Shown: piece by piece, positions 1 through 34,823 of the stretch
How the letters are laid out: every line of letters begins with the position of its first letter
How positions within the stretch are numbered: the first letter of the stretch is position 1
IMG/VR virus record: IMGVR_UViG_2630968500_000009
From: a virus
Lineage: Duplodnaviria > Heunggongvirae > Uroviricota > Caudoviricetes
Strand: one strand, 5' to 3'
DNA length: 36,107 nt
Notes under the pieces: generated by a model
Told to the model about the DNA's origin: nothing
Databases searched by the model: none
What the model saw: the letters and a program-made list of their open reading frames with translations, nothing else
Program-made: the position numbers and the translations under genes

Positions 1-71
1 ACCAAAGCATGACATCTCTGTTTCGCACCGAAGGTGACACTTCTGCTTTGCGTTGACAGGAGAAGCAGGCT

Positions 72-227
72 ATGAAGCAGCAAAAGGCGATGTTAATCGC
101 CCTGATCGTCATCTGTTTAACCGTCATAGTGACGGCACTGGTAACGAGGAAAGACCTCTGCGAGGTACGAATCCGAACCGGCCAGACGGAGGTCGCTGTC
201 TTCACAGCTTACGAACCTGAGGAGTAA
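72..227 (+). CDS. hokD: Hok/Gef-family type I membrane toxin (51 aa)
   Basis: Hand-translated ORF (below the ORF-track size cut-off): MKQQKAMLIALIVICLTVIVTALVTRKDLCEVRIRTGQTEVAVFTAYEPEE. Single TM helix plus conserved C-terminal tail typical of Hok/RelF; followed by a terminator hairpin. Confidence 0.8.
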   Translation: MKQQKAMLIALIVICLTVIVTALVTRKDLCEVRIRTGQTEVAVFTAYEPEE

Positions 228-295
228 GAGACCCGGCGGGGGAGAAATCCCTCGCCACCTCTGATGTGGCAGGCATCCTCAACGCACCCGCACTT

Positions 296-320
296 AACCC
301 GCTTCGGCGGGTTTTTGTTT
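296..320 (+). terminator. Rho-independent terminator downstream of hok
   Basis: GC stem AACCCGC / GCGGGTT with TTCG tetraloop followed by a T-run. Confidence 0.5.
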
Positions 321-443
321 TTATTTTCAACGCGTTTGAAGTTCTGGACGGTGCCGGAATAGAATCAAAAATACTTAAGTAGCGCGCAGGGATAAGAGGG
401 ATGGTCCCTTAAAGGGGAGAGCTAATTATCCGGAAGGATTCTG

Positions 444-695
444 ATGATGAACATCGAAGAACTGCGTAAAATTTTTTGTGAAGATGGCCTCTATGCTGTG
501 TGCGTTGAAAATGGAAATCTTGTTAGTCATTACCGCATTATGTGTTTGCGAAAGAATGGGGCTGCGTTAATTAATTTTGTGGATGCTCGGGTCACGGACG
601 GATTTATCTTGCGCGAAGGTGAGTTTGTCACTTCATTACAGGCATTGAAAGAGATCGGAATAAAAGCTGGCTTTTCTGCTTTTTCAGGAGAATAA
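444..695 (+). CDS. rem: Small prophage protein (83 aa), Rem-like by position
   Basis: ORF preceded by GGAAGGA Shine-Dalgarno; position between hok and the DUF968 gene matches K-12 Qin order as I recall it. Function unknown. Confidence 0.45.
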   Translation: MMNIEELRKIFCEDGLYAVCVENGNLVSHYRIMCLRKNGAALINFVDARVTDGFILREGEFVTSLQALKEIGIKAGFSAFSGE

Positions 696-761
696 ACTCA
701 TCTACAATCTTGCGCGGGGCTGAACTCCCGCTGAGTAACACCGTGCCACCGGAGAAAACCG

Positions 762-1040
762 ATGGCACGCAACGCAAAATATTACAATTCTGATAATTCG
801 CCCGTTCTTGCCTGCACGCACGGGCGGTATTCTCACGCATTCAAGTCTGAATGGTTCCAGCACCCTCCATGCACTGCAGAACAGGCCGAATGGCTGATTC
901 ATTCTTACCGCAGGCGCGGGTTCGAGGTTAAGAAAGCTCTCAGTCTCGACTATCGGCACTGGATAATCTCTGTCAGGCTGCCTTATTCCGAACGCCCACC
1001 ACGTGCGTCCCGCACTTTCCAGCAACGGATCTGGAGGTAA
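762..1040 (+). CDS. Hypothetical protein (92 aa), translationally coupled to downstream DUF968 gene
   Basis: ORF whose TAA stop (1038-1040) overlaps the GGAGGT Shine-Dalgarno of the next gene, which starts at GTG 1042. No recognisable domain. Confidence 0.3.
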   Translation: MARNAKYYNSDNSPVLACTHGRYSHAFKSEWFQHPPCTAEQAEWLIHSYRRRGFEVKKALSLDYRHWIISVRLPYSERPPRASRTFQQRIWR

Positions 1041-1041
1041 C

Positions 1042-2091
1042 GTGCGGGTATTACTTAGACCTGTTCTGGTGCCTGAGCTTGGGCTGGTGGTCCTTAAGCC
1101 GGGCCGTGAATCCATACAGATATTTCATAATCCTCGAGTGCTGGTGGAACCGGAACCAAAAAGCATGCGTAATCTGCCATCCGGAGTCGTTCCTGCCGTT
1201 CGCCAGCCGCTGGCGGAAGACAAAACATTGCTGCCGTTTTTTAGTAACGAACGGGTGATTCGTGCTGCTGGCGGCGTTGGCGCATTGTCCGACTGGCTAT
1301 TACGTCATGTTACATCCTGCCAGTGGCCTAATGGCGATTACCATCACACTGAAACAGTCATTCACCGTTATGGTACCGGCGCAATGGTGTTGTGCTGGCA
1401 CTGCGACAACCAACTGCGTGACCAGACATCGGAATCACTGGAGCTGCTTGCTCAACAAAATCTGACAGCATGGGTGATTGACGTCATCCGTCACGCAATA
1501 AGCGGTACGCAGGAGCGGGAATTATCTTTGGCTGAATTATCCTGGTGGGCGGTCTGCAATCAGGTGGTGGATGCACTACCTGAGGCTGTATCGCGTCGTT
1601 CGCTGGGATTACCAGCGGAAAAAATCTGCTCGGTGTACCGCGAAAGCGACATCGTACCGGGAGAGCAGACCGCCACCAGCATATTGAAACAACGCACAAA
1701 AAATCTTGCACCGTTGCCTTACGCCCACCAGCAACAAAAATCACCACAGGAAAAGACGGTGGTAAGCATCACCGTTGATCCAGAGTCTCCGGAATCTTTC
1801 ATGAAGCTGCCTAAACGTCGCCGCTGGGTTAAGGAGAAATACACACGTTGGGTTAAGACACAGCCGTGTGCTTGCTGCGGTATGCCAGCCGACGATCCGC
1901 ATCATCTGATTGGTCACGGGCAGGGCGGAATGGGAACAAAAGCACATGATCTCTTTGTGTTGCCTTTGTGCAGAAAGCATCACAACGAGCTGCATACGGA
2001 TACAGTGGCATTTGAAGATAAGTATGGCTCCCAACTGGAGCTGATATTTCGTTTTATCGATCGCGCGCTGGCAATTGGCGTACTGGCGTAA
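1042..2091 (+). CDS. ydfU: DUF968-family prophage protein with C-terminal HNH-like Cys/His motif (349 aa from GTG start)
   Basis: GTG start 6 nt after a strong GGAGGT SD; C-terminus has CACCG...DPHHLIGHG...CRKHHNELH resembling an HNH/zinc-finger nuclease motif; sits immediately upstream of Q. Confidence 0.6.
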   Translation: MRVLLRPVLVPELGLVVLKPGRESIQIFHNPRVLVEPEPKSMRNLPSGVVPAVRQPLAEDKTLLPFFSNERVIRAAGGVGALSDWLLRHVTSCQWPNGDYHHTETVIHRYGTGAMVLCWHCDNQLRDQTSESLELLAQQNLTAWVIDVIRHAISGTQERELSLAELSWWAVCNQVVDALPEAVSRRSLGLPAEKICSVYRESDIVPGEQTATSILKQRTKNLAPLPYAHQQQKSPQEKTVVSITVDPESPESFMKLPKRRRWVKEKYTRWVKTQPCACCGMPADDPHHLIGHGQGGMGTKAHDLFVLPLCRKHHNELHTDTVAFEDKYGSQLELIFRFIDRALAIGVLA

Positions 2092-2104
2092 GTGGAGAAC
2101 GAGC

Positions 2105-2857
2105 ATGAACCTTGAAGCCTTACCAAAATATTACTCCCCAAAATCTCCAAAATTGAGCGATGACGCTCCAGCGACAGGCACCGGTTGTTTAACAATTACG
2201 GATGTAATGGCAGCGCAGGGGATGGTGCAGTCGAAAGCACCACTTGGGTTGGCCTTATTTCTGGCAAAAGTTGGTGTTCAGGACCCTCAGTTTGCGATTG
2301 AAGGCCTGCTAAATTACGCGATGGCACTGGATAACCCGACATTGAACAAATTGAGTGAAGAAATCCGGTTACAGATTATTCCTTACCTCGTGAGTTTTGC
2401 CTTTGCTGATTACTCCAGGTCTGCGGCAAGTAAGGCTCGCTGTGAGCATTGTTCAGGTACGGGATTTTATAATGTATTGCGCGAAGTGGTGAAACACTAC
2501 AGACGCGGGGAATCTGTAATCAAGGAAGAATGGGTGAAGGAACTATGTCAGCATTGCCATGGTAAGGGCGAAGCCAGCACAGCGTGCAGAGGGTGTAAGG
2601 GTAAAGGGATTGTTCTGGATGAAAAAAGAACCCGGTTTCATGGCGTACCGGTATATAAGATTTGTGGGCGTTGTAATGGAAACCGGTTTAGTCGTTTACC
2701 GACCACGCTGGCACGACGTCATGTCCAGAAGCTGGTACCAGACCTGACCGATTATCAGTGGTATAAGGGGTATGCGGACGTCATTGGTAAACTGGTAACA
2801 AAGTGCTGGCAGGAAGAAGCATACGCGGAAGCGCAATTGAGGAAGGTGACGAGATAA
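2105..2857 (+). CDS. Q: Late-gene antiterminator Q (250 aa)
   Basis: Position directly upstream of a promoter/terminator pair and the lysis cassette; Cys-rich zinc-finger-like motifs (CEHCSGTG, CQHCHGKG, CRGCKGKG, CGRCNG); SD GGAGA before ATG 2105. Confidence 0.65.
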   Translation: MNLEALPKYYSPKSPKLSDDAPATGTGCLTITDVMAAQGMVQSKAPLGLALFLAKVGVQDPQFAIEGLLNYAMALDNPTLNKLSEEIRLQIIPYLVSFAFADYSRSAASKARCEHCSGTGFYNVLREVVKHYRRGESVIKEEWVKELCQHCHGKGEASTACRGCKGKGIVLDEKRTRFHGVPVYKICGRCNGNRFSRLPTTLARRHVQKLVPDLTDYQWYKGYADVIGKLVTKCWQEEAYAEAQLRKVTR

Positions 2858-2888
2858 ATGATTTTTGCTGAAGATGGCGACATGATGT

Positions 2889-2917
2889 TTGCATTTTTCA
2901 AAAAATATGGATAAAAT
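2889..2917 (+). promoter_or_regulatory. Candidate late promoter (pR'-like) downstream of Q
   Basis: TTGCAT (-35), 17-nt spacer, TAAAAT (-10); about 30 nt after the Q stop, where lambdoid late promoters lie. Confidence 0.3.
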
Positions 2918-2962
2918 TTTTTCAACGATGGGCTTTGTATACCCGACGTTAAGAAAAAGTAG

Positions 2963-2990
2963 AAAACCCGCTGATGAGCGGGTTTTGTGC
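2963..2990 (+). terminator. Candidate tR'-like intrinsic terminator (Q antitermination target)
   Basis: Hairpin AAAACCCGC-TGATGA-GCGGGTTTT followed by a T-rich tract, about 45 nt downstream of the candidate promoter. Confidence 0.45.
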
Positions 2991-3278
2991 TTTAAATGGG
3001 GCAATGGTAATGTTGAATCTCATCCCGGGACTCATGTCTGTTAACTTATTATTTAGCTGGTGACTTGGTTATTTGCCTGATGTTTAAAATGTTTTCTTCC
3101 AGTACAATGTCCCTAAACACAATGAGTCTGCTTATTATATTATTAGCAGAGCTATTACGGCCAAAGTACAGCATAAGCTTTTAAAGCCAATCAACCAGTC
3201 ATCAAGACAGACGGGGTTATTCATAAAAACTCTCCATGTGTGATCCGATGGGGCCTGAAATTAAAGCTTTAATATAGC

Positions 3279-3491
3279 TCATGAAAGGTAAACATTGGCA
3301 GCTGAAGGGCCACGCAGACCATTTATCCGGCAAAATTCCACGCGTAATCCGGTGGTAATTTCTTCTGCATCGCGGAGATTGAGCGCTGAAACATGAAGCT
3401 GGACATCGATACGACCATCGGATGGGGTGATAAGACCCTTGCCGCTTTTGCCGTCAAAGGTTTTGACAATTCCTGTCATTTTACGGGACAA
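3279..3491 (-). CDS. cspF: Cold-shock-domain protein, CspF-like (70 aa)
   Basis: [26 protein letters not shown]... is a divergent CspA-family member; transcribed divergently from cspB. Confidence 0.8.
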
Positions 3492-3791
3492 AAAAATTCC
3501 TTAATACTGATAACTTGGCGCACTATACACACGTTCCTGAAGAAAGCTATAGTTTTTTGATGGGGTTGAAGATGGCTGGATGTCTAAAATAAACATTGCT
3601 TCATATGTTCAACTATGCGTTAATGATTGCGTCGGTTTGAAGAACAGACGATATACGAAGTAGTTTACTAAAGCAGTTCTCATTTCAGGTGTTATTCACT
3701 TATTCCTTCTTTGAGTCTCTCCAATTAAGTACGAAGTCGTTTCTGTTATGCAAACCATTTATGCCGAAAGGCTCAAGTTAAGGAATGTAGA

Positions 3792-4007
3792 ATGTCAAAT
3801 AAAATGACTGGTTTAGTAAAATGGTTTAACGCTGATAAAGGTTTCGGCTTTATTTCTCCTGTTGATGGTAGTAAAGATGTGTTTGTGCATTTTTCTGCGA
3901 TTCAGAATGATAATTATCGAACCTTATTTGAAGGTCAAAAGGTTACCTTCTCTATAGAGAGTGGTGCTAAAGGTCCTGCAGCAGCAAATGTCATCATTAC
4001 TGATTAA
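3792..4007 (+). CDS. cspB: Cold-shock protein CspB-like (71 aa)
   Basis: [23 protein letters not shown]...VHFSAI... carries canonical CspA RNP1/RNP2 motifs; long AT-rich 5' leader. Confidence 0.8.
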
Positions 4008-4288
4008 AATTCATCGCTCGTCTGTATACGATAACGAAGAAGGCTGATGCCTGAGTAGAGATACGGACAGAGTAGTGAATATTGGATCTCTTTAATAAAA
4101 AGTAAGGAGGTCCAATACATGAAACAATGGCTAGCATATTTGGCAAAATATTAATCAGGAAAAGTATGCTAACCATTGTGGTGAAGTGCAGGTTTGCTGC
4201 ATGAATAGTTTTACAGCAGAAGCTAACTGCTGGCATGGCAAAACAAAGTGCGTAAGTGGATGACTCCCACAAAAAGCACCACAATCTC

Positions 4289-4312
4289 AAACCCGCTCAG
4301 GCGGGTTTTTTA
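4289..4312 (+). terminator. Rho-independent terminator downstream of cspB
   Basis: AACCCGC-TCAG-GCGGGTT followed by TTTTTTATT. Confidence 0.5.
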
Positions 4313-4370
4313 TTATCTGCTTTAAATATATTATTAAAATATAAAAAATACTTGTTACTAATAAAATCAA

Positions 4371-4541
4371 TCAGGCTACAGCTTTAAGATTTGTCTGGAA
4401 TATTTTGTTGCAATGAGGGCAGATCAAAAGGGCACCTTTTTGTACTCTTGAAAAACTGTGTTCTGACTCTTGGGTGCAGTTTGGGCAGGAACATTTAACG
4501 AGATAATTACGGCGTGATTTTGAGTTTTTACGTTCTGACAT
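4371..4541 (-). CDS. Small zinc-ribbon-like protein (56 aa from internal ATG)
   Basis: Two Cys pairs (CSCPNC ... CPHC); AGGAA SD upstream of ATG at 4541; antisense to the late operon between cspB and the holin. Confidence 0.3.
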   Translation of the reverse strand: MSERKNSKSRRNYLVKCSCPNCTQESEHSFSRVQKGALLICPHCNKIFQTNLKAVA

Positions 4542-4760
4542 AGGCTTTTCCTGTATAAATGGCCGTATACAGTACACTAAATATGAAAACATTTCTCGTA
4601 TTATTATTTTATATATGACTTTCTTTCAAAATAATTACCCACATTTTTAATGTGTATGTTTTTTTAGCGCCGTTGAGAACAACGTGTGCTGTCAAAACTA
4701 CCCCGTAGACTCCGATCTTTTCAAACATATTGCACCATCCGTGTACATCGGGGTGAGGAT

Positions 4761-4976
4761 ATGAAATCAATGGATAAGTTAACAACAGGTGTTGCCTATG
4801 GCACATCGGCGGGTAATGCTGGTTTCTGGGCATTGCAGTTACTCGATAAAGTAACTCCGTCACAGTGGGCTGCAATCGGTGTGCTGGGTAGCCTGGTTTT
4901 TGGCCTGCTGACGTATCTGACAAATCTTTATTTCAAGATTAAAGAAGACAGGCGTAAGGCTGCGAGAGGAGAGTAA
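4761..4976 (+). CDS. essQ: Pinholin, phage 21 S-type (71 aa, dual-start motif MKSM)
   Basis: [26 protein letters not shown]...[35 protein letters not shown] closely resembles S21 pinholin; GGTGAGGA SD; two Met codons at positions 1 and 4. Confidence 0.85.
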
Positions 4977-4980
4977 TCCA

Positions 4981-5288
4981 ATGACTCAAGACTATGAACT
5001 GGTTGTGAAAGGAGTCCGTAATTTTGAGAATAAAGTTACGGTAACTGTAGCCTTACAGGACAAAGAACGCTTTGACGGTGAAATTTTTGACCTGGATGTC
5101 GCCATGGACCGTGTTGAAGGAGCTGCGCTGGAGTTTTATGAGGCAGCAGCCAGAAGGAGCGTCCGGCAAGTCTTCCTGGAAGTAGCAGAAAAATTGTCAG
5201 AAAAAGTTGAGTCTTATCTGCAGCATCAGTACTCCTTTAAGATTGAAAATCCTGCCAATAAGCACGAGCGTCCTCATCATAAATATCT

Positions 5289-5292
<4 letters not shown>
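4981..5292 (+). CDS. ydfR: Acidic hypothetical protein interposed in the lysis cassette (103 aa)
   Basis: ORF tightly packed between holin stop and endolysin start; same position as ydfR in K-12 Qin. Confidence 0.6.
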
Positions 5293-6316
<1,024 letters not shown>

Positions 6317-6432
6317 GGTAATATTAAATCGGAACATTTACATCGCGGAATGTAAAATTTAAATAAAAAGGACTCTTCCATGAGCCAAAATTCCTGAAAT
6401 CTTAAGGGTAAGATAAAAGGTCTTAATCAGAA

Positions 6433-6441
6433 TGACACGTT
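6433..6441. repeat. IS1 target-site duplication, left copy (TGACACGTT)
   Basis: Identical 9-bp sequence immediately flanks both IS1 ends. Confidence 0.85.
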
Positions 6442-6496
6442 GGTGATGCTGCCAACTTACTGATTTAGTGTATGATGGTGTTTTTGAGGTGCTCCA

Positions 6497-6772
6497 GTGG
6501 CTTCTGTTTCTATCAGCTGTCCCTCCTGTTCAGCTACTGACGGGGTGGTGCGTAACGGCAAAAGCACCGCCGGACATCAGCGCTATCTCTGCTCTCACTG
6601 CCGTAAAACATGGCAACTGCAGTTCACTTACACCGCTTCTCAACCCGGTACGCACCAGAAAATCATTGATATGGCCATGAATGGCGTTGGATGCCGGGCA
6701 ACAGCCCGCATTATGGGCGTTGGCCTCAACACGATTTTACGTCACTTAAAAAACTCAGGCCGCAGTCGGTAA
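6497..6772 (+). CDS. insA: IS1 InsA (91 aa)
   Basis: [43 protein letters not shown]... matches IS1 InsA. Confidence 0.9.
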
Positions 6773-7194
6773 CCTCGCGCATACAGCCGGGCAGTGACGT
6801 CATCGTCTGCGCGGAAATGGACGAACAGTGGGGATACGTCGGGGCTAAATCGCGCCAGCGCTGGCTGTTTTACGCGTATGACAGTCTCCGGAAGACGGTT
6901 GTTGCGCACGTATTCGGTGAACGCACTATGGCGACGCTGGGGCGTCTTATGAGCCTGCTGTCACCCTTTGACGTGGTGATATGGATGACGGATGGCTGGC
7001 CGCTGTATGAATCCCGCCTGAAGGGAAAGCTGCACGTAATCAGCAAGCGATATACGCAGCGAATTGAGCGGCATAACCTGAATCTGAGGCAGCACCTGGC
7101 ACGGCTGGGACGGAAGTCGCTGTCGTTCTCAAAATCGGTGGAGCTGCATGACAAAGTCATCGGGCATTATCTGAACATAAAACACTATCAATAA
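6691..7194 (+). CDS. insB: IS1 InsB (167 aa; InsAB' transposase made by -1 frameshift)
   Basis: [25 protein letters not shown]... matches IS1 InsB. Confidence 0.9.
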
Positions 7195-7209
7195 GTTGGA
7201 GTCATTACC

Positions 7210-7218
7210 TGACACGTT
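7210..7218. repeat. IS1 target-site duplication, right copy (TGACACGTT)
   Basis: Direct repeat of 6433-6441. Confidence 0.85.
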
Positions 7219-7455
7219 TTATTAATAAATAAAGCTATTCTTTCATTGCTGTGTTTTTCTTTACAAAAGTAATCCTTGCTATGGGTGGTTAATCATGCGT
7301 TAATGGTGTTCTGGTTTGTTACAAATTTATCTGAAGCAGTCATTGTTATAATTTTATTATTTGTACCTCTTGAGATTTCCTTGTTGGTTTTTCTCTCTGA
7401 TATTTTTTTTCGGACCATTCTGCCCAAGGGCTAATTTCTTCAAAAGGTAATAATT

Positions 7456-7668
7456 ATGTCTAACAAAATGACTGGTTTAGTGAAATGGTTTAACCCTGAA
7501 AAAGGTTTTGGTTTCATCACGCCGAAAGATGGCAGCAAAGATGTGTTTGTCCATTTCTCAGCAATTCAGAGCAACGATTTCAAAACATTAACTGAGAATC
7601 AGGAAGTTGAATTTGGTATTGAGAACGGACCTAAAGGTCCTGCCGCTGTTCATGTAGTGGCGCTTTGA
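7456..7668 (+). CDS. cspI: Cold-shock protein CspI-like (70 aa)
   Basis: [38 protein letters not shown]...; long AT-rich leader; CspA-family motifs. Confidence 0.8.
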
Positions 7669-7873
7669 GGTAGACAATATTACAAACCATATTCACTTTA
7701 GATGCCCGTGTTGTCATGGTTCCCAGTATAGAACATCATCTTTTGATGTTTCTGACATGAATCCTTTCGGGGCAAAATGTATCTTTTGTAAATCAATGAT
7801 GATTACATTTGATAATATTTCACAATACTTAAATGCCAGCCGTCTGTCGTTGGATTTAAAAAAGTGAAAATGA

Positions 7874-7897
7874 AGGCTCCTTCGGGAGCTTTTTTGC
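7874..7897 (+). terminator. Rho-independent terminator
   Basis: AGGCTCC-TTCG-GGAGCT hairpin followed by TTTTT. Confidence 0.45.
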
Positions 7898-7939
7898 TTG
7901 GTGTCTATTCGATGGATACTCACATACTACGGTAACATC

Positions 7940-8170
7940 ATGAAAAAAATCATAGTTTTTTTTAACTCTGAACCAGCAGTGGTAGTGCCAGCGATGACTG
8001 GAGTTAACACCATCATGCGTGAATATCCAAATGGCGAAAAAACACACCTTACTGTAATGGCCGCAGGGTTTCCATCTCTGACCGGAGATCATAAAGTCAT
8101 TTATGTAGCCGCGGATCGACATGTTACTTCAGAAGAAATTCTGGAAGCAGCAATAAGGCTCTTGAGTTGA
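7940..8170 (+). CDS. Hypothetical small protein (76 aa from ATG 7940)
   Basis: ORF between cspI and gnsB; weak SD; start uncertain (the track ORF begins at TTG 7898). Confidence 0.35.
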   Translation: MKKIIVFFNSEPAVVVPAMTGVNTIMREYPNGEKTHLTVMAAGFPSLTGDHKVIYVAADRHVTSEEILEAAIRLLS

Positions 8171-8341
8171 TTTGATGCTATTGCATTGATAATTCAGGAA
8201 AATTCTCTTTGTCTGTTTGTGTAAAATTTAGACTATCGTATGTTGATTATTGCGATGTTTCATCTTATCTTTTACACGTTTGCACCATATAATCGACTTA
8301 CTGTGTAACTGGAAAGTCATAACAGACTAAAAGAGGAAATG

Positions 8342-8515
8342 ATGAATATTGAAAACTTAAAAACAAAAGCAGAAGCAGATATTTCTGAATATATAACAAA
8401 AAAAATTATTGAACTTAAGAAAAAGACCGGGAAAGAAGTTACCAGTATTCAGTTTACCGCACGGGAAAAAATGACGGGTCTTGAAAGCTATGATGTCAAG
8501 ATTAATTTAATCTGA
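8342..8515 (+). CDS. gnsB: GnsA/GnsB-family small protein (57 aa)
   Basis: Hand-translated, below ORF-track cut-off: MNIENLKTKAEADISEYITKKIIELKKKTGKEVTSIQFTAREKMTGLESYDVKINLI; AAGAGGA SD; TATAAT box at 8288-8293. Confidence 0.7.
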   Translation: MNIENLKTKAEADISEYITKKIIELKKKTGKEVTSIQFTAREKMTGLESYDVKINLI

Positions 8516-8666
8516 TGTATTCAATAATAAAATTTATCCATAAACCTCGTTTTTACGGGGTTTTGTTATATTTGAATGGTTCCGAATATCTAAATCACAA
8601 TTGTTGATGGTTTTTATTAAACCAATGCAGTCCGGCTCAGGAGTGAGAGAAGCCGGACGTTATGGT

Positions 8667-9077
8667 TTAGCGTGGTAAGATCTGTGTAGTTTTCTGGATG
8701 CTTTCAGTAAATAGTAATGAATTATCAAAGGTATAGTAATATCTTTTTTGTTCGTGGATATTTGTAACCCACCGAAAAACTCCTGCTTTAGCAAGGTTTC
8801 TTCTGTATTCCTGAAATGTGATCTCTCTGGATTTCAGCTTATTAGAGGTCGTTTCTATAAGATGCCTATCCTTTGAAAATTTGACAGACACAATGTTTTT
8901 TAGGCCCTTTAATAACACTGTATTATCATTTTTTAATACAATATGAACATTCTCTGTGGCTAAATAGTAAATGTAATGTGAGACATTGTGACGTTTTAGC
9001 TCAGAATAAAACCATTGATAGTTTAAATCGTTTCGAACTTTATCAAATATTTGTTTAAAAATGACTACCTGATCCAT
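8667..9077 (-). CDS. ydfO: DUF1398-family prophage protein (136 aa from ATG 9077)
   Basis: ORF antisense to the late operon; GGAAGG SD upstream of the internal ATG; conserved position next to cos. Confidence 0.65.
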
Positions 9078-9134
9078 AGATAAACCTTCCATGTGATATG
9101 AGGGGGCGTAGTCTGCACGATTATCTAAATTGCT

Positions 9135-9368
9135 TCAATCTGGTCTGACCTGTTTTCTGAGCAATTCAGTAATGTCACTCTTTTCTTTGTTTGCTTCAGA
9201 AGAAACTCTTTTTTCTGAGCACAGTCTCCGGCGGCAGGCTTCAATGACCCAGGCTGAGAAATTCCCGGACCCTTTTTGCTCAAGAGCGATGTTAATTTGT
9301 TCAATCATTTGGTTAGGAAAGCGGATGTTGCGGGTTGTTGTTCTGCGGGTTCTGTTCTTCGTTGACAT
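9135..9368 (-). CDS. ynfO: Ribbon-helix-helix-like small DNA-binding protein (77 aa)
   Basis: N-terminal basic stretch then NIRFPNQMIEQINIALEQKG...FSAWVIEA, resembling Arc/CopG RHH folds; immediately upstream of and co-oriented with ydfO. Confidence 0.5.
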   Translation of the reverse strand: MSTKNRTRRTTTRNIRFPNQMIEQINIALEQKGSGNFSAWVIEACRRRLCSEKRVSSEANKEKSDITELLRKQVRPD

Positions 9369-9567
9369 GAGGTTGCCCCGTATTCAGTGTCGCTGATTTG
9401 TATTGTCTGAAGTTGTTTTTACGTTAAGTTGATGCAGATCAATTAATACGATACCTGCGTCATAATTGATTATTTGACGTGGTTTGATGGCCTCCACGCA
9501 CGTTGTGATATGTAGATGATAATCATTATCACTTTACGGGTCCTTTCCGGTGATCCGACAGGTTACG

Positions 9568-9579
9568 GGGCGGCGACCT
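9568..9579 (+). other. cos: cosN cohesive-end site (GGGCGGCGACCT), with cosB-like inverted repeats downstream to about 9750
   Basis: The 12-nt lambda cohesive-end sequence preceded by ...GATCCGACAGGTTACG and followed by CGCGGGTTTTCGCTATTTATGAAAATTTTCCGG, as in the lambda genome ends recalled from memory. Confidence 0.8.
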
Positions 9580-9756
9580 CGCGGGTTTTCGCTATTTATG
9601 AAAATTTTCCGGTTTAAGGCATTTCCGTTCTTCTTCGTCGTAACTTAATGTTTTTATTTAAAATACCCCCTGAAAAGAAAGGAAACGACAGGTGCTGAAA
9701 ACGAGCTTTTGGGCCTCTGTCGTTTCCTTTCTCTGTTTTTGGCCGTGGAATGAACA

Positions 9757-10276
9757 ATGGAAGTCAACAAAAAGCAGCTGGCTGACATTTTCGGTGCGAG
9801 TATCCGTACCATTCAGAACTGGCAGGAGCAGGGAATGCCCGTTCTGCGAGGCGGTGGGAAGGGTAATGAGGTGCTTTATGACTCTGCCGCCGTCATAAAA
9901 TGGTATGCCGAAAGGGATGCTGAAATTGAGAACGAAAAGCTGCGCCGGGAGGTTGAAGAACTGCGACAGGCCAGCGAGGCAGATCTCCAGCCAGGGACTA
10001 TTGAGTACGAACGCCATCGACTTACGCGTGCGCAGGCCGACGCACAGGAGCTGAAAAATGCCAGAGACTCCGCTGAAGTGGTGGAAACTGCATTCTGTAC
10101 TTTCGTGCTGTCGCGGATCGCAGGTGAAATTGCCAGTATTCTCGACGGGATCCCCCTGTCGGTGCAGCGGCGTTTTCCGGAACTGGAAAACCGACATGTT
10201 GATTTCCTGAAACGGGATATCATCAAAGCCATGAACAAAGCAGCCGCGCTGGATGAACTGATACCGGGGTTGCTGA

Positions 10277-10302
<26 letters not shown>
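9757..10302 (+). CDS. nu1: Terminase small subunit Nu1 (181 aa)
   Basis: MEVNKKQLADIFGASIRTIQNWQEQGMPVLRGGGKGNEV... matches lambda Nu1. Confidence 0.9.
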
Positions 10303-17177: not shown

Positions 17178-17531
17178 GTGGCTGATTTCGATAACCTGTT
17201 CGATGCTGCCATTGCCCGCGCCGATGAAACGATACGCGGGTACATGGGAACGTCAGCCACCATGACATCCGGTGAGCAGTCAGGTGCGGTGATACGTGGT
17301 GTTTTTGATGACCCTGAAAATATCAGCTATGCCGGACAGGGCGTGCGCGTTGAAGGCTCCAGCCCGTCCCTGTTTGTCCGGACTGATGAGGTGCGGCAGC
17401 TGCGGCGTGGAGACACGCTGACCATCGGTGAGGAAAATTTCTGGGTAGATCGGGTTTCGCCGGATGATGGCGGAAGTTGTCATCTCTGGCTTGGACGGGG
17501 CGTACCGCCTGCCGTTAACCGTCGCCGCTGA
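17178..17531 (+). CDS. FII: Head-tail connector gpFII (117 aa, GTG start)
   Basis: Sequence and length match lambda FII. Confidence 0.85.
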   Translation: MADFDNLFDAAIARADETIRGYMGTSATMTSGEQSGAVIRGVFDDPENISYAGQGVRVEGSSPSLFVRTDEVRQLRRGDTLTIGEENFWVDRVSPDDGGSCHLWLGRGVPPAVNRRR

Positions 17532-17542
17532 AAGGGGGATGT

Positions 17543-18121
17543 ATGGCCATAAAAGGTCTTGAGCAGGCCGTTGAAAACCTCAGCCGTATCAGCAGAACGG
17601 CGGTGCCTGGTGCCGCCGCAATGGCCATTAACCGCGTTGCTTCATCCGCGATATCGCAGTCGGCGTCACAAGTTGCCCGTGAGACAAAGGTACGCCGGAA
17701 ACTGGTAAAGGAAAGGGCCAGGCTGAAAAGGGCCACTGTCAAAAATCCGCAGGCCAGAATCAAAGTTAACCGGGGGGATTTGCCCGTAATCAAGCTGGGT
17801 AATGCGCGGGTTGTCCTGTCCCGCCGCAGGCGTCGTAAAAAGGGGCAGCGTTCATCCCTGAAAGGTGGCGGCAGCGTGCTTGTGGTGGGTAACCGTCGTA
17901 TTCCCGGCGCGTTTATTCAGCAACTGAAAAACGGCCGGTGGCATGTTATGCAGCGTGTGGCCGGGAAAAACCGTTACCCCATTGATGTGGTGAAAATCCC
18001 GATGGCGGTGCCGCTGACCACGGCGTTTAAACAGAATATTGAACGGATACGGCGTGAACGTCTTCCGAAAGAGCTGGGCTATGCGCTGCAGCATCAACTG
18101 AGAATGGTAATAAAGCGATGA
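17543..18121 (+). CDS. Z: Tail completion protein gpZ (192 aa)
   Basis: Matches lambda Z. Confidence 0.9.
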   Translation: MAIKGLEQAVENLSRISRTAVPGAAAMAINRVASSAISQSASQVARETKVRRKLVKERARLKRATVKNPQARIKVNRGDLPVIKLGNARVVLSRRRRRKKGQRSSLKGGGSVLVVGNRRIPGAFIQQLKNGRWHVMQRVAGKNRYPIDVVKIPMAVPLTTAFKQNIERIRRERLPKELGYALQHQLRMVIKR

Positions 18122-18513
18122 AACATACTGAACTCCGTGCAGCCGTACTGGATGCACTGGAGAAGCATGACACCGGGGCGACGCTTTTTGATGGTCGCCC
18201 CGCTGTTTTTGATGAGGAAGATTTTCCGGCAATTGCCGTTTATCTCACCTGCGCTGAATACACGGGCGAAGAGCTGGACAGCGACACCTGGCAGGCGGAG
18301 CTGCATATTGAAGTTTTCCTGCCTGCTCAGGTGCCGGATTCAGAGCTGGATGCGTGGATGGAGTCCCGGATTTATCCGGTGATGAGCGATATCCCGGCAC
18401 TGTCAGATTTGATCACCAGTATGGTGGCCAGCGGCTATGACTACCGGCGCGACGATGATGCGGGCCTGTGGAGTTCAGCCGATCTGACTTATGTCATTAC
18501 CTATGAAATGTGA
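18118..18513 (+). CDS. U: Tail terminator gpU (131 aa)
   Basis: Matches lambda U. Confidence 0.9.
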
Positions 18514-20115: not shown

Positions 20116-22669
20116 ACCGGTAGGCGATCTGGTCGTTGATTTGAGTCTGGATGCGGCCAGATTTGACGAGCAGATGGCCAGAGTCAGGCGTCATTTTTCC
20201 GGTACGGAAACTGATGCGAAAAAAACAGCGGCAGGCGTTGAACAGTCGCTGAGCCGACAGGCACTGGCTGCACAGAAAGCGGGGATTTCCGTCGGGCAGT
20301 ATAAAGCTGCCATGCGTATGCTGCCTGCGCAGTTCACTGACGTGGCCACGCAGCTTGCAGGCGGGCAAAGTCCGTGGCTGATCCTGCTGCAACAGGGTGG
20401 TCAGGTTAAGGACTCCTTCGGCGGGATGATCCCCATGTTCCGGGGGCTTGCCGGTGCGATCACCCTGCCGATGGTCGGGGCCACCTCGCTGGCGGTGGCG
20501 ACCGGTGCGCTGGCGTATGCCTGGTATCAGGGTAACTCAACCCTGTCCGATTTCAACAAAACGCTGGTCCTTTCCGGTAATCAGTCGGGTCTGACGGCAG
20601 ATCGTATGCTGGTCCTGTCCAGAGCCGGGCAGGCGGCAGGGCTGACGTTTAACCAGACCAGCGAGTCACTCAGTGCACTGGTTAAGGCGGGGGTAAGCGG
20701 TGAGGCTCAGATTGCGTCCATCAGCCAGAGTGTGGCGCGTTTCTCTTCTGCATCCGGCGTGGAGGTGGACAAGGTCGCTGAAGCCTTCGGGAAGCTGACC
20801 ACTGACCCGACGTCGGGGCTGACGGCGATGGCGCGCCAGTTCCATAACGTGACGGCGGAGCAGATTGCGTATGTTGCTCAGTTGCAGCGTTCCGGCGATG
20901 AAGCCGGGGCATTGCAGGCGGCGAACGAGGCCGCAACGAAAGGGTTTGATGACCAGACCCGACGCCTGAAAGAGAACATGGGCACGCTGGAAACCTGGGC
21001 AGACAGGACAGCACGGGCATTCAAATCCATGTGGGATGCGGTGCTGGATATTGGTCGTCCTGATACCGCTCAGGAGATGCTGATTAAGGCAGAGGCTGCG
21101 TTTAAGAAAGCGGACGACATCTGGAATCTGCGCAAGGATGATTATTTTGTTAACGATGAAGCGCGGGCGCGTTACTGGGATGATCGTGAAAAGGCCCGTC
21201 TTGCGCTTGAAGCCGCCCGAAAGAAGGCTGAACAGCAGAGTCAACAGGACAAAAATGCGCAGCAGCAGAGCGATACCGAAGCATCACGGCTGAAATATAC
21301 CGAAGAGGCGCAGAAGGCTTACGAACGGCTGCAGACACCGCTGGAGAAATATACCGCCCGTCAGGAAGAACTGAACAAGGCACTGAAAGACGGGAAAATC
21401 CTGCAGGCAGATTACAACACGCTGATGGCGGCGGCGAAAAAGGATTATGAAGCGACGCTGAAAAAGCCGAAACAGTCCGGCGTGAAGGTGTCTGCGGGCG
21501 ATCGTCAGGAAGACAGTGCTCATGCTGCCCTGCTGACGCTTCAGGCAGAACTCCGGACGCTGGAGAAGCATGCCGGAGCGAATGAGAAAATCAGCCAGCA
21601 GCGCCGGGATTTGTGGAAGGCGGAAAATCAGTTCGCGGTACTGGAGGAGGCGGCACAACGTCGCCAGCTATCCGCACAGGAGAAATCCCTGCTGGCGCAT
21701 AAAGATGAGACGCTGGAGTACAAACGCCAGCTGGCTGTACTTGGCGATAAGGTCACGTATCAGGAGCACCTGAACGCGCTGGCGCAGCAGGCGGATAAGT
21801 TCGCACAGCAACAACGGGCAAAACGGGCAGCCATTGAGGCGAAAAACCGGGGGCTTACTGACCGGCAGGCAGCGCGGGACGCCACGGAACAGCGTCTGAA
21901 GGAGCAGTATGGCGATAATCCGCTGGCGCTAAATAACGTCATGTCAGAGCAGAAAAAGACCTGGGCGGCTGAAGACCAGCTTCGCGGGAGCTGGATGGCA
22001 GGCCTGAAGTCCGGCTGGAGTGAGTGGGAAGAGAGTGCCACGGACAGTATGTCGCAGGTTAAAAGTGCTGCCACGCAGACCTTTGATGGTATTGCGCAGA
22101 ATATGGCGGCGATGCTGACCGGCAGTGAGCAGAACTGGCGCAGCTTCACCCGTTCCGTGCTGTCCATGATGACAGAAATTCTGCTTAAGCAGGCAATGGT
22201 GGGGATCGTCGGGAGTGTGGGCAGTGTCATTGGCGGTGCTGTCGGTGGTGACGCATCAGCGTCAGGCGGTACAGCTATTCAGGCAGCTGCGGCGAAATTC
22301 CATTTTGCGACCGGGGGATTTACGGGAACCGGCGGCAAATATGAGCCTGCGGGGATTGTTCACCGCGGTGAATTTGTCTTCACGAAGGAGGCAACCAGCC
22401 GGATTGGCGTGGGGAATCTCTACCGGCTGTTGCGCGGCTATGCCACCGGCGGTTATGTCGGTACACCGGGCAGCATGGCAGACAGCCGGTCGCAGGCGTC
22501 CGGGACGTTTGAGCAGAATAACCATGTGGTGATTAACAACGACGGCACGAACGGGCAGATAGGTCCGGCTGCTCTGAAGGCGGTGTATGACATGGCCCGC
22601 AAGGGTGCCCGTGATGAAATTCAGACACAGATGCGTGATGGTGGCCTGTTCTCCGGAGGTGGACGATGA
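20108..22669 (+). CDS. H: Tail tape measure protein gpH (853 aa)
   Basis: Length and sequence match lambda H. Confidence 0.95.
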   Translation: MAEPVGDLVVDLSLDAARFDEQMARVRRHFSGTETDAKKTAAGVEQSLSRQALAAQKAGISVGQYKAAMRMLPAQFTDVATQLAGGQSPWLILLQQGGQVKDSFGGMIPMFRGLAGAITLPMVGATSLAVATGALAYAWYQGNSTLSDFNKTLVLSGNQSGLTADRMLVLSRAGQAAGLTFNQTSESLSALVKAGVSGEAQIASISQSVARFSSASGVEVDKVAEAFGKLTTDPTSGLTAMARQFHNVTAEQIAYVAQLQRSGDEAGALQAANEAATKGFDDQTRRLKENMGTLETWADRTARAFKSMWDAVLDIGRPDTAQEMLIKAEAAFKKADDIWNLRKDDYFVNDEARARYWDDREKARLALEAARKKAEQQSQQDKNAQQQSDTEASRLKYTEEAQKAYERLQTPLEKYTARQEELNKALKDGKILQADYNTLMAAAKKDYEATLKKPKQSGVKVSAGDRQEDSAHAALLTLQAELRTLEKHAGANEKISQQRRDLWKAENQFAVLEEAAQRRQLSAQEKSLLAHKDETLEYKRQLAVLGDKVTYQEHLNALAQQADKFAQQQRAKRAAIEAKNRGLTDRQAARDATEQRLKEQYGDNPLALNNVMSEQKKTWAAEDQLRGSWMAGLKSGWSEWEESATDSMSQVKSAATQTFDGIAQNMAAMLTGSEQNWRSFTRSVLSMMTEILLKQAMVGIVGSVGSVIGGAVGGDASASGGTAIQAAAAKFHFATGGFTGTGGKYEPAGIVHRGEFVFTKEATSRIGVGNLYRLLRGYATGGYVGTPGSMADSRSQASGTFEQNNHVVINNDGTNGQIGPAALKAVYDMARKGARDEIQTQMRDGGLFSGGGR

Positions 22670-25068: not shown

Positions 25069-28470
<3,402 letters not shown>

Positions 28471-29200: not shown

Positions 29201-32200
29201 ATGGCAGTAAAAATTTCAGGTGTACTGAAAGACGGCACAGGAAAACCGGTACAGAACTGCACAATCCAGCTGAAAGCAAAACGTAACAGTACCACGGTGG
29301 TGGTGAACACGCTGGCATCTGAAAATCCGGATGAAGCCGGGCGTTACAGTATGGACGTTGAGTACGGTCAGTACAGCGTTATTCTGTTGGTGGAAGGATT
29401 CCCGCCGTCACATGCCGGGACCATCACAGTGTATGAAGATTCCCGACCCGGTACGCTGAATGATTTTCTCGGTGCCATGACGGAGGATGATGCCCGTCCG
29501 GAGGCACTGCGCCGTTTTGAGCTGATGGTGGAAGAGGTGGCGCGTAACGCGTCCGTGGTGGCACAGAACACGGCAGCCGCGAAGAAGTCAGCCAGTGATG
29601 CCAGCACATCAGCCCGTGAGGCGGCAACCCATGCGACTGATGCTGCAGGCTCAGCACGCGCAGCCAGCACGTCAGCCGGACAGGCCGCGTCGTCGGCTCA
29701 GTCAGCGACTTCCAGCGCAGGAACGGCATCAACAAAGGCCACTGAAGCATCAAAAAGTGCTGCCGCTGCAGAGTCCTCAAAAAGCGCGGCAGCTACCAGT
29801 GCCAGTGCCGCGAAAACGTCAGAAACGAATGCTGCAGCGTCACAACAATCAGCAGCCACTTCTGCATCCACCGCGACTACGAAAGCGTCAGAAGCTGCCA
29901 CCTCAGCCCGGGATGCGGCGGCTTCAAAAGAGGCGGCAAAATCATCAGAAACGAACGCATCCTCGAGCGCCAGTAGCGCAGCTTCCTCGGCAACAGCGGC
30001 AGGAAATTCCGCGAAGGCGGCAAAAACGTCAGAGACGAACGCCAGGTCTTCTGAAACGGCAGCGGGACAGAGCGCCTCGGCTGCGGCAGGCTCAAAAACA
30101 GCGGCTGCGTCGTCTGCCAGTGCAGCGTCAACAAGTGCCGGGCAGGCCTCAGCCAGTGCCACCGCCGCCGGAAAATCGGCAGAAAGCGCCGCATCGTCTG
30201 CTTCAACAGCCACAACGAAGGCTGGCGAAGCCACTGAACAGGCCAGCGCAGCAGCGAGGTCTGCTTCCGCAGCGAAGACATCCGAAACGAACGCGAAAGC
30301 GTCGGAAACCAGCGCAGAATCCTCAAAAACGGCTGCCGCATCGTCAGCCAGTTCGGCGTCGTCATCGGCATCATCTGCGTCTGCTTCAAAAGATGAGGCG
30401 ACCAGACAGGCGTCAGCAGCGAAGGGTAGCGCCACGACGGCATCCACGAAGGCGACAGAGGCAGCTGGCAGTGCGACGGCAGCAGCTCAGAGCAAAAGTA
30501 CGGCGGAATCTGCAGCAACGCGCGCTGAGACAGCGGCAAAACGGGCAGAGGATATTGCATCCGCCGTGGCGCTTGAGGATGCGAGCACGACGAAAAAGGG
30601 GATAGTACAGCTCAGCAGTGCGACCAACAGCACTTCCGAGTCACTGGCGGCAACGCCAAAAGCCGTTAAGGCCGCGTATGACCTGGCTAACGGGAAATAC
30701 ACCGCACAGGATGCAACGACAGCACAGAAAGGGATAATCCAGCTAAGCAGTGCGACCAACAGCACGTCTGAAACGCTGGCGGCAACGCCAAAGGCAGTAA
30801 AAGCAGCCAATGACAATGCTGAGAAACGTCTGCAGAAAGATCAGAACGGTGCGGATATCCCTGGCAAAGACACCTTTACGAAAAATATTGGTGCCTGCCG
30901 TGCCTTCGGTGGGTCAGTAAGCACAACAACAGGAAACTGGACGACTGCACAGTTTATCGAGTGGCTGGATTCTCAGGGAGCATTTAACCATCCATACTGG
31001 ATGTGCAAGGGTTCCTGGTCTTATGGCAATAATAAAATCATTACTGATACTGGCTGCGGTAATATTCATCTCGCCGGAGCTGTCATTGAAGTAATGGGGA
31101 TAAAGTCAGCGATGACGATCCGCATTACCACACCGACCACCTCCACTGGTGGTGGAACAACTAACGCCCAGTTTACCTATATTAATCACGGAACAGATTA
31201 TTCACCTGGCTGGCGAAGGGACTATAACTCCAGAAATAAGCCAACGGCATCAGAGATCGGGGCGTTACCGTCAGGTGGAACAGCAGTATCATCAGTTAAT
31301 CTGTCTTCAAAAGGTCGGGTAACCGCGCTGACAGACAATACGCAGGGGGCAACAGGTCTTGAGTTATACGAGGTGTATAACAACGGATATCCAACAGCGT
31401 ATGGAAATATCATTCACCTGAAAGGGATGACAGCCGTTGGCGAAGGTGAGTTACTCATCGGCTGGAGTGGTACAAGCGGTGCTCATGCTCCGGCATTTAT
31501 TCGTTCACGACGGGATACGACCGACGCAAACTGGTCGCCGTGGGCGCAGCTTTACACCTCGGCTCATCCTCCTGCAGAGTTTTATCCAGTCGGTGCACCA
31601 ATCCCGTGGCCATCAGATACCGTTCCGTCTGGTTATGCCCTGATGCAGGGGCAGACTTTTGACAAATCTGCTTACCCGAAACTTGCAGCCGCTTATCCGT
31701 CAGGCGTGATCCCTGATATGCGTGGCTGGACGATTAAGGGCAAGCCCGCCAGTGATCGAGCCGTATTGTCTCAGGAACAGGACGGCATTAAATCACACAC
31801 CCACAGCGCCAGCGTATCCAGTACGGATTTGGGGACGAAAACCACATCGTCGTTTGATTACGGCACTAAATCCACGAATAACACTGGTGCGCATACCCAT
31901 AGTGTTAGCGGTACGGCTGCTTCAGCCGGTGCACATACCCATTCGATGACATTTGTTTCAGGTGGTTCCAGTGGTGCTCCGGGAAGTGGATCACCTGATT
32001 ACTCTAAATACAGTGTTAACACTTCTTCTGCAGGCGCTCATACGCACTCTGTATCGGGTACTGCTGCAAGCGCAGGTGCACACGCACATACTGTCGGTAT
32101 TGGTGCTCATACGCACTCCGTTGCGATTGGTTCACATGGACATACCATCACCGTTAACGCTGCTGGTAACGCGGAAAACACCGTCAAAAACATCGCATTT

Positions 32201-32224: not shown

Positions 32225-32799
32225 TGGCATTCAGAATGAGTGAACAACCACGGACCATAAAAATTTATAATCTGCTGGCCGGAACTAATGAATTTATTGG
32301 TGAAGGTGACGCATATATTCCGCCTCATACAGGTCTGCCAGCAAACAGTATCGATATTGCACCGCCAGATATTCCGGCAGGCTTCGTGGCTGTTTTCAAC
32401 AGTGATGAGGCATCGTGGCATCTCGTTGAAGATCATCGGGGTAAAACGGTTTATGACGTGGCTTCCGGCGACGCGTTATTTATTTCTGAACTCGGTCCGT
32501 TACCGGAAAATGTTACCTGGTTATCGCCGGGAGGGGAATATCAGAAGTGGAACGGCACAGCCTGGGTGAAGGATACGGAAGCAGAAAAACTGTTCCGGAT
32601 CCGGGAGGCGGAAGAAACAAAAAACAGCCTGATGCAGGTAGCCAGTGAGCATATTGCGCCGCTTCAGGATGCTGCAGATCTGGAAATTGCAACGGAGGAA
32701 GAAATCTCGTTGCTGGAAGCATGGAAAAAGTATCGGGTATTGCTGAACCGTGTTGATACGTCAACTGCACAGGATATTGAATGGCCAGCACTGCCGTAG
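32224..32799 (+). CDS. tfa: Tail fibre assembly chaperone Tfa (191 aa)
   Basis: Start overlaps stf stop (ATAATGG); sequence resembles lambda/K-12 Tfa proteins. Confidence 0.85.
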
Positions 32800-32896: not shown

Positions 32897-33487
32897 TTAT
32901 ATGTCAGGTGTCTGAAGTTTTGCTTTGGCTCTTAAAATGGTTTGCCGCGAGGTTTTGAATTCCCGGGCAATGGCACTTATACTTACACCTGACTTAATTC
33001 GTTCGAATACCACCTGTTTCTGTTCTTCATTTAACACAGGTGGTCGACCAAAACGTTTCCCTGCGCCCCGGGCTCTTACTATCCCGGAATGAGTGCGTTC
33101 AAGTAAAAGGTCTCGTTCAAATTCAGCGACTGCTGAAATTACTTGCATCATCATTTTTCCTGTTGGACTGGTCAGGTCAATGCCCCCCAATGCTAAGCAA
33201 TGCACTCTGATACCTGTTTCGGTCAGTTGTTCCACTGTTTTCCTGATATCCATTGCATTACAACCAAGGCGATCCAGTTTTGTCACAATCAATTGATCAC
33301 CACATTTCAGGCGAGCAAGCAACCGGTTAAAACCAGGACGCTCACTGGTTGCTGCTGAGCCGCTAATGTGTTCTTCGATTATTTGCTGAGGTTTGATTTT
33401 AAAACCTGCACTTTCGATTTCCCGGCGTTGATTTTCGGTGGTCTGATCCAGCGTTGATATCCGACAGTAAGCAAAAATTCGAGACAT
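32897..33487 (-). CDS. pinQ: Serine recombinase, resolvase/invertase family (196 aa)
   Basis: N-terminal catalytic motif (YCRISTLDQ with the active-site Ser) and C-terminal HTH; sits beside tfa as pinQ does in Qin-type prophages. Confidence 0.75.
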
Positions 33488-33803
33488 AGTGAGACTCTAT
33501 ACGAAATTGGTGTTCATATCATAATGCATCTCAGAAAATAATTTTGATTATTTTTGTGCATATTTGTATGTACACGTTCGAAAATAAACGAATGCGTATG
33601 CAACCCCGTAATTTTGGTGAGACCCAAAATCGATTTTGTGAAAAATGGCTTTAACTCGGTTTGTTTTTCGAGTTCCGGGCGGACTCAAGGAAGAAGAATA
33701 GTGTTGCGTGTTATTTTAACCAGATTTCAAGTTGTTTGGTCGTGGAAAAGTGGAGCAAAATGTTGTTAAAGTGGAAAAATGATAAAAAAGTAAGTTTATT
33801 ATA

Positions 33804-34037
33804 TTACATTTTACCATTTAAATTTTGGTTGTCTTTAAGAACTGATATCGCTGTTTGTAATAATTCTTTGTTATCCAGCCATGATTTTTTCTTTATGTTT
33901 CCTTCAATGTAATCAAGCAATGTTCTGGTATTGATAGGTCTTCCCTGTTTTGCTACTTCCACTACAGCATCCCCTAGGATAATTCTTACTTCAGGAAGCT
34001 GCGCAGGGAACCACTTTAGGGTGTCTTTTGATTTCAT
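33804..34037 (-). CDS. ydfK: Small protein YdfK/YnaE-like (77 aa from internal ATG)
   Basis: MKSKDTLKWFPAQLPEVRIILGDAVVEVAKQG...; AAGGA SD upstream of ATG 34037; AT-rich long leader. Confidence 0.55.
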   Translation of the reverse strand: MKSKDTLKWFPAQLPEVRIILGDAVVEVAKQGRPINTRTLLDYIEGNIKKKSWLDNKELLQTAISVLKDNQNLNGKM

Positions 34038-34823
34038 GAAGATATTCCTTAAAATATTATTGATTTTCATTGCGATATTGTATGTCTGATTCAGGATATG
34101 TTGACTTATACATCGGTTTTGTCTGGGTTATTGGATATGCCAATCCCTAATTTTATTAGGGCATGACTAAAAATGCTGAATATGATAAGGAGAGATGTGA
34201 TTATCAGTATGCTGTTCATATAGCCTCGAATTAGTAATGTGTTATATATGATATAGTTGACAATTTTTATCTTGGGTGTTCTTAAAGTTCGTAGATAAAC
34301 ATTGTCGTTTCAGGTATACAGGAATGCTAACAGGTGGCAGCAAAAATCAGGCGGTTTATGGCGCAAGCTGAAGCGGCAACTGCAAACTATCTTATGCAGA
34401 GACTCTACACGGATTGGGTTTAAAAGTATACATAGATAACAGTTTTTATCTGAAAAATAAAAATATCAAGGTGATATAGCCTATATGCCTTTGATGCGGA
34501 GGAATGAATGTGATGGGAGTGATGTATCTGAATAGTTGAAAAACCGCAGACACGCCTTATGCAAGAACGTGCTGCGGTTGGCTGGTAAATTTTTCGATAG
34601 TGTGAGTATTGAATGATTTCCAGCCGTTCTTGATTTTACGCATAAATCCATGAAAAAACTACTTATCTGTTGGGGAGTTTTTTTTGGGGCATATATGGGA
34701 CATAAATAGGCCCCAGATAGACACTGAGATCGAACTTAGGATGCTTTTTAAAAAATGCAACTATCTGAAAAAACCTAGAAAACGCCAAGGAAACCACAGG
34801 ATGGGAAAAAACACCTGTGAATT

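Follow-up and report, generated by a model that had tools for sequence, protein, structure and literature searches.

The rzpQ–cspI spacer of a Qin-like prophage contains an IS1 element, which raises the question of how the element came to lie there and whether it matters for the late genes around it. The DNA analysed here (the window) is a stretch of 36,107 bp that, judged by its sequence, covers the right-hand two-thirds of a Qin-like lambdoid prophage of full length, similar to phage PhiR42_1. Our answer is that a complete IS1A very probably entered the AT-rich, non-coding rzpQ/Rz1–cspI spacer of such a prophage by simple insertion, in a close relative of Escherichia coli strain G5, presumably with little effect on late-gene expression. 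The genes of the window are as follows.

1–2091: hokD, rem, an unnamed ORF and ydfU
2105–2857: Q antiterminator, intact (PF03589, E 4e-54)
3135–4541: a 29-codon ORF (opposite strand), cspF (opposite strand), cspB and ynfU (opposite strand)
4761–6316: essD holin, ydfR, rrrQ lysozyme and rzpQ with an embedded Rz1-like ORF
5819–6316, + strand: rzpQ (Rz-like spanin, DUF2514), the upstream neighbour of the insertion, intact
5994–6266, + strand: Rz1-like lipoprotein ORF, embedded in rzpQ
7310–7695, + strand: cspI mRNA leader and coding sequence (CDS 7456–7668), the downstream neighbour, intact
7456–8515: cspI, ynfQ/ymcF, ynfR, ynfN and gnsB
8667–9368, opposite strand: ydfO and ynfO
9568: lambda-type cos, GGGCGGCGACCT
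9757–32799: nohA/Nu1, terminase, portal, protease, D, E, FI, FII, Z, U, V, G, T, H, M, L, K, I, J, lom, stf and tfa
32897–34219: pinQ, ydfK and ynfT
from 34824: truncated ydfJ

All 45 annotated ORFs of the window are intact. The insertion hits no coding sequence, as it begins 125 bp past the rzpQ stop codon and ends 238 bp before the cspI ATG. The sequence-only reading had placed the element between Rz/Rz1 and cspI, and the positions of rzpQ with its Rz1-like ORF (5819–6316) and of cspI (7456–7668) bear this out. Since the insertion is intergenic, no reading frame is interrupted. The element should be regarded as a mobile-element insertion and not as a part of the phage, whose lysis and structural genes remain uninterrupted.

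The window shares its gene order with the Qin prophage of K-12 and with PhiR42_1 (PV340562.1), running from Q through cspF/cspB, essD, ydfR, rrrQ, rzpQ and cspI and continuing with ynfQ, ynfN, gnsB, ydfO, ynfO and nohA. In K-12 Qin, the head and tail genes after nohA have been lost, whereas the window possesses the full structural module together with IS1. PhiR42_1 (48,668 bp; 48.7 kb) has kept its head and tail genes and lacks IS1. This deposited phage genome is collinear with the window, with 96.5–99.9% identity over the aligned blocks. Its collinearity with the window and with the K-12 Qin gene order demonstrates that Qin-type elements exist as complete phage genomes. A literature search on the provenance of PhiR42_1 and ECOR13 gave nothing relevant. 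Two parts of the window are not aligned to PhiR42_1, namely 27570–28431 in the C-terminal part of J and 31908–32071 within the side tail fibre gene; this mismatch is the usual host-range mosaicism.

The element and its immediate flanks have the following features.

6433–6441, no strand: left 9-bp target-site duplication, TGACACGTT, abutting the left end of IS1
6442–7209, + strand: complete IS1 (IS1A isoform), 768 bp
6442–6464, + strand: left terminal inverted repeat (IRL), overlapping the promoter-like site at 6449–6476
6497–6772, + strand: insA, 91 codons with a GTG start, zinc ribbon and HTH (PF03811, PF12759)
6748–6754, + strand: A6C slippery motif for a −1 programmed frameshift
6497–7194, + strand: InsAB' transposase frame, 232 aa after the −1 shift, DDE domain
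7187–7209, − strand: right terminal inverted repeat (IRR)
7210–7218, no strand: right 9-bp target-site duplication, TGACACGTT, abutting the right end of IS1

The left end of the element at 6442 is GGTGATGCTGCCAACTTACTGAT, and the right end, read as its reverse complement, is GGTAATGACTCCAACTTATTGAT, with the + strand ending in ...ATCAATAAGTTGGAGTCATTACC at 7209. These are the canonical end sequences of IS1, and the two 23-bp inverted repeats match each other at 18 of 23 positions. The insB frame overlaps insA in the −1 phase and stays open up to 7194. Translation of the window with a −1 shift at A6C yields a continuous InsAB' frame of 232 aa. This protein matches the Pfam families PF03811 (InsA zinc ribbon), PF12759 (InsA HTH) and PF03400 (IS1 DDE, E 9e-78), all beyond their curated cut-offs, and it reaches 243 bits against the NCBIfam IS1 transposase equivalog NF033558 (cut-off 100). 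The earlier claim of an intact 768-bp IS1 is confirmed by the boundaries, both inverted repeats and the A6C motif. Its description of insA and insB as intact needs one amendment. The insA gene and the open insB frame are both present, but insB lacks a separate start codon, and its product is made only as part of the InsAB' fusion. A promoter scan also detected the promoter-like site CTGCCA-16-TATGAT at 6449–6476 within the left end, which we take to be the insA promoter P_IRL, as its position is that known for IS1.

The length, the ends, insA/insB' with A6C, the transposase domains and the 9-bp duplication are all those of the IS1 family. In addition, many E. coli genomes contain IS1A copies that match this one without a single difference over 768 bp (100% identity). 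By sequence comparison, the element is a member of the IS1 family and an exact copy of a common isoform; its identity, completeness and boundaries are matters of direct observation. It does not differ from the IS1A isoform of E. coli in any respect, and only its insertion site is particular to the lineage. Of the 5,426 complete E. coli genomes, 4,971 contain IS1, and the median number of places in a genome is 11. Given its intact sequence, the copy is presumably active.

The two copies of TGACACGTT at 6433–6441 and 7210–7218 are the identical 9-bp flanking repeats that had been described, and this 9-mer is present exactly twice in the 36-kb window, both times adjoining an IS1 end. The chance of a 9/9 match at two fixed positions is about 4^-9 (4e-6). 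According to established IS1 biology, the InsAB' DDE transposase would be made by the −1 frameshift at A6C and would attach the ends of IS1 to target DNA cut with a 9-bp stagger; gap repair would then duplicate TGACACGTT. IS1 favours AT-rich target DNA. With a GC content of 31–36%, the target spacer fits this known preference.

The sequence-only reading further predicted that related prophages would have an empty site with a single TGACACGTT. For the search of 5,426 complete E. coli genomes, the query joined 500 bp from each flank, the left one with a single TGACACGTT. It was covered to at least 80% in 2,103 genomes, with 1,572 records at 99% identity or higher. Among the matches listed, H8–H30 are uninterrupted 1,000-bp pieces with 99.9% identity, including K-12 MG1655, C600, ATCC 8739 and J53. 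In K-12, window positions 2942–6441 align to positions 1–3500 of the Qin locus (L001) and 7210–10285 to positions 3492–6566, so that the two flank alignments overlap by exactly one TGACACGTT. In PhiR42_1, window positions 1–6441 correspond to phage positions 14709–21149 (99.9%) and 7210–27569 to 21141–41498, with a single TGACACGTT at 21141–21149. The predicted empty site is therefore seen in both K-12 Qin and PhiR42_1, with collinear flanks. The uninterrupted junction was also found in five more distinct phages (six records) of 45.3–48.0 kb, namely Tritos, 2H10 (two records), HannyBb, mEp460_ev081 and PhiR63_1.

The occupied site is rare. With 300-bp queries spanning each IS1 junction, both junctions were contiguous in only one of the complete E. 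coli genomes, that of strain G5 (NZ_CP060065.1), which originates from human faeces in Germany. The window corresponds to G5 positions 2309232–2345338, with 32 substitutions in 36,107 bases and no indels (99.91% identity). RefSeq annotates the element at the same coordinates of G5 as 'IS1-like element IS1A family transposase, programmed frameshift' (H4P49_RS11230); hence the insertion is already known publicly for this strain. The genomes in which the 1-kb empty-site query matched in two pieces (H2–H7) do not carry the same insertion; they represent separate IS1 events that differ in position or orientation.

The G5 insertion has the same junctions, duplication and coordinates as that in the window, and differs by two substitutions in IS1 and 30 in tail genes. 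The two differences within IS1, at 6834 and 6837, are synonymous and leave the InsAB' protein identical, while the other 30 cluster in the tail genes Z, U, H, L and J (17408–18427, 20235, 22430–22480, 23558 and 26517–26790). Such clustering suggests gene conversion with other resident prophages or IS1 copies, or assembly consensus effects, rather than clock-like divergence.

Taken together, the empty sites, the junctions confined to G5 and the identical IS1A copies point to a recent, lineage-specific simple transposition. Neither a spread of these junctions over many unrelated lineages nor an empty site with deviating flanks was encountered. We therefore infer that the insertion is of recent date in evolutionary terms and confined to the G5 lineage. 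The recent, clean transposition that had been proposed is in line with the single-copy empty site, the rarity of the insertion and the identity of this copy to the widespread IS1A isoform. The IS1 copy may serve as a convenient lineage marker in studies of this strain. Its importance beyond correct annotation is slight, and it opens no new biological question.

The position of the element within the late genes leads to the first alternative, according to which IS1 is a polar block in the Q-dependent late operon that cuts expression of the cos-proximal head and tail genes and cripples particle production. The element has the lysis genes on one side and nohA/terminase on the other, and it shares the strand of the late genes. 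In ordinary operons, IS1 is the classical case of an insertion that is polar whichever way it points, through Rho-dependent termination, and translation of much of the element would be poor here. Downstream of an intact Q, the + strand carries the lysis genes, cos and the head and tail genes in one orientation, and every structural ORF is intact. The earlier placement of IS1 in a presumptive Q-dependent late unit is consistent with this arrangement of Q upstream of lysis genes, cos and structural genes on one strand. The insertion shares with the classical polar insertions (IS1 or IS2 in gal and lac, and IS elements in lambda) that it sits in a long polycistronic unit and is oriented with transcription. 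It differs from them in that the unit is presumed to be Q-antiterminated, with polarity suppressed, and in that the insertion is intergenic.

The layout of the late unit speaks against such a block. Just past Q, a promoter-like site (TTTGCA-18-TAAAAT, 2888–2917) is followed by a perfect bidirectional hairpin terminator at 2963–2986. As consensus matches at the position expected after Q, these elements (2888–2986) are candidates for pR' and tR'. A second strong terminator-like hairpin on the + strand, also a consensus match, lies at 4289–4308 before the holin gene. If these predictions are correct, the late transcript of IS1-free relatives must already cross both hairpins as well as about 0.7 kb of the antisense genes ydfO and ynfO; reading through these obstacles would thus be nothing new to the late unit. 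No terminator-like site was detected by the scan on the + strand within 6100–7700, IS1 included.

Furthermore, lambda Q is a proven polarity suppressor, as reviewed in PMC12360218. Q-loaded complexes resist both hairpin- and Rho-dependent termination, and Q82 complexes likewise resist Rho (PMC12360218). A CRISPRi study of lambda additionally raised the possibility that Q assists polymerase in passing roadblocks in the late unit (PMC10695390). Provided that the Q protein of this prophage is made and works, RNA polymerase modified by it would resist termination; IS1 would then be expected to have little effect on late-gene expression of the phage, and strong polarity on the head and tail genes appears unlikely. 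The polar-block explanation consequently retains only a small probability.

Two further readings, which we grade together as improbable to a similar degree, concern the neighbourhood of the insertion and the length of the prophage. According to the first, the rzpQ–cspI–ynfQ spacer of Qin-like prophages is a recurrent landing pad for IS1; according to the second, IS1 and ISEc23 together make the prophage too long and thereby hamper cos packaging. Within about 1.2 kb of the site, at least eight to ten independent IS1 events were observed in other E. coli genomes (loci L006–L013; 5,426 complete genomes), which differ in isoform (IS1A, IS1B, IS1X2), orientation, duplication and adjacent deletion. 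They include the following, some of whose positions were derived from annotation coordinates and not from alignment.

HL15 and SF10: inverted IS1X2, duplication ATTAAATCG, equivalent to window 6323–6331
23CRST007: IS1 inside the cspI leader, duplication GTACCTCTT, equivalent to window 7363–7371
FDAARGOS_448 group: IS1 in ynfQ
IAL72xx strains: IS1 in rzpQ
ECCHD184, SX12, EC05 and DFL.5: IS1 with adjacent deletions

The neighbourhood could be an AT-rich landing zone of IS1. If the landing-pad reading were true, IS1 could be a main driver of decay or regulatory rewiring of the cold-shock gene cluster.

Regarding length, the G5 prophage measures about 51.06 kb between the 11-bp repeats TTATGGATTTC, which are putative att sites with the right copy at window position 34822. 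It is longer than its phage relatives (45.3–48.7 kb), and the approximately 51 kb of the G5-lineage prophage is due to IS1 and ISEc23. Over-length for cos packaging caused by these two elements, rather than polarity, might impair the phage. ISEc23 (IS66 family) is inserted in the early region of the G5 prophage, and the neighbouring ynfE/ynfF region of G5 carries IS903B (G5 loci L002 7101–9517 and L014 2068–3036: ISEc23, IS903B). The same early region also contains an ISNCY remnant, but a transposase remnant is likewise found at the corresponding place in PhiR42_1. With IS1 in at least 34 places of G5, this lineage is IS-rich. Because of ISEc23 in the early region of the sister prophage in G5, removal of IS1 alone might not restore particle production. 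IS1 is hence one of at least two IS insertions to weigh before the prophage is assumed to be inducible.

A very unlikely alternative is that the insertion acts through cspI, either by displacing sequence upstream of about −100 or by read-out from IS1, and so alters cold-shock and stress expression of cspI–ynfQ–ynfR–ynfN. The right end of IS1 is located about 92–100 bp upstream of the start of the cspI leader in the same orientation, the ends of IS1 are able to form hybrid promoters, and other strains carry IS1 even nearer to, or within, the cspI leader. However, the likely core promoter of cspI, with −35 TTGCTA at 7276–7281 and −10 GTTAAT at 7299–7304 (hexamers read by eye), is untouched, as is the AT-rich stretch upstream of it (7250–7304 including the promoter). 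The scan also revealed no outward-facing (hybrid) promoter at the right junction of IS1, where manual reading found only weak hexamers.

The distance to the leader follows from the cspA thermoregulator family of Rfam (RF01766), which matches 7310–7695 with 112.8 bits over model positions 1–428. Since this model begins at the mRNA 5' end, IS1 with its right duplication lies upstream of the cspI leader at a distance of about 92 bp. With the insertion at this distance, the promoter region of cspI, whose position is predicted, should be spared. The leader and coding sequence of cspB (3631–4023) match the same model with 158.8 bits. As RF01766 covers the leaders and coding sequences of both cspI and cspB, both prophage cold-shock genes appear to keep a cspA-type thermosensing mRNA.

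It is extremely improbable that the placement of IS1 is an assembly artefact (a misplaced multicopy repeat) or one end of a more extensive rearrangement mediated by IS1. The element is indeed present in many copies (at least 34 places in G5, median 11 per genome) and the two bases differing from G5 could reflect consensus calling, but the independently deposited complete genome of G5 has identical junctions, and the perfect 9-bp duplication with flanks collinear to K-12 and PhiR42_1 is the signature of a simple insertion. A composite transposon, an IS1-mediated deletion and a misassembly were all rejected on the basis of the perfectly collinear empty-site flanks and the shared 9-bp duplication. 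Apart from the IS1 locus, a full-length match to Rfam IS009 (RF02111, 221 bits) was observed at 32567–32765, inside the tail-fibre assembly gene tfaQ.
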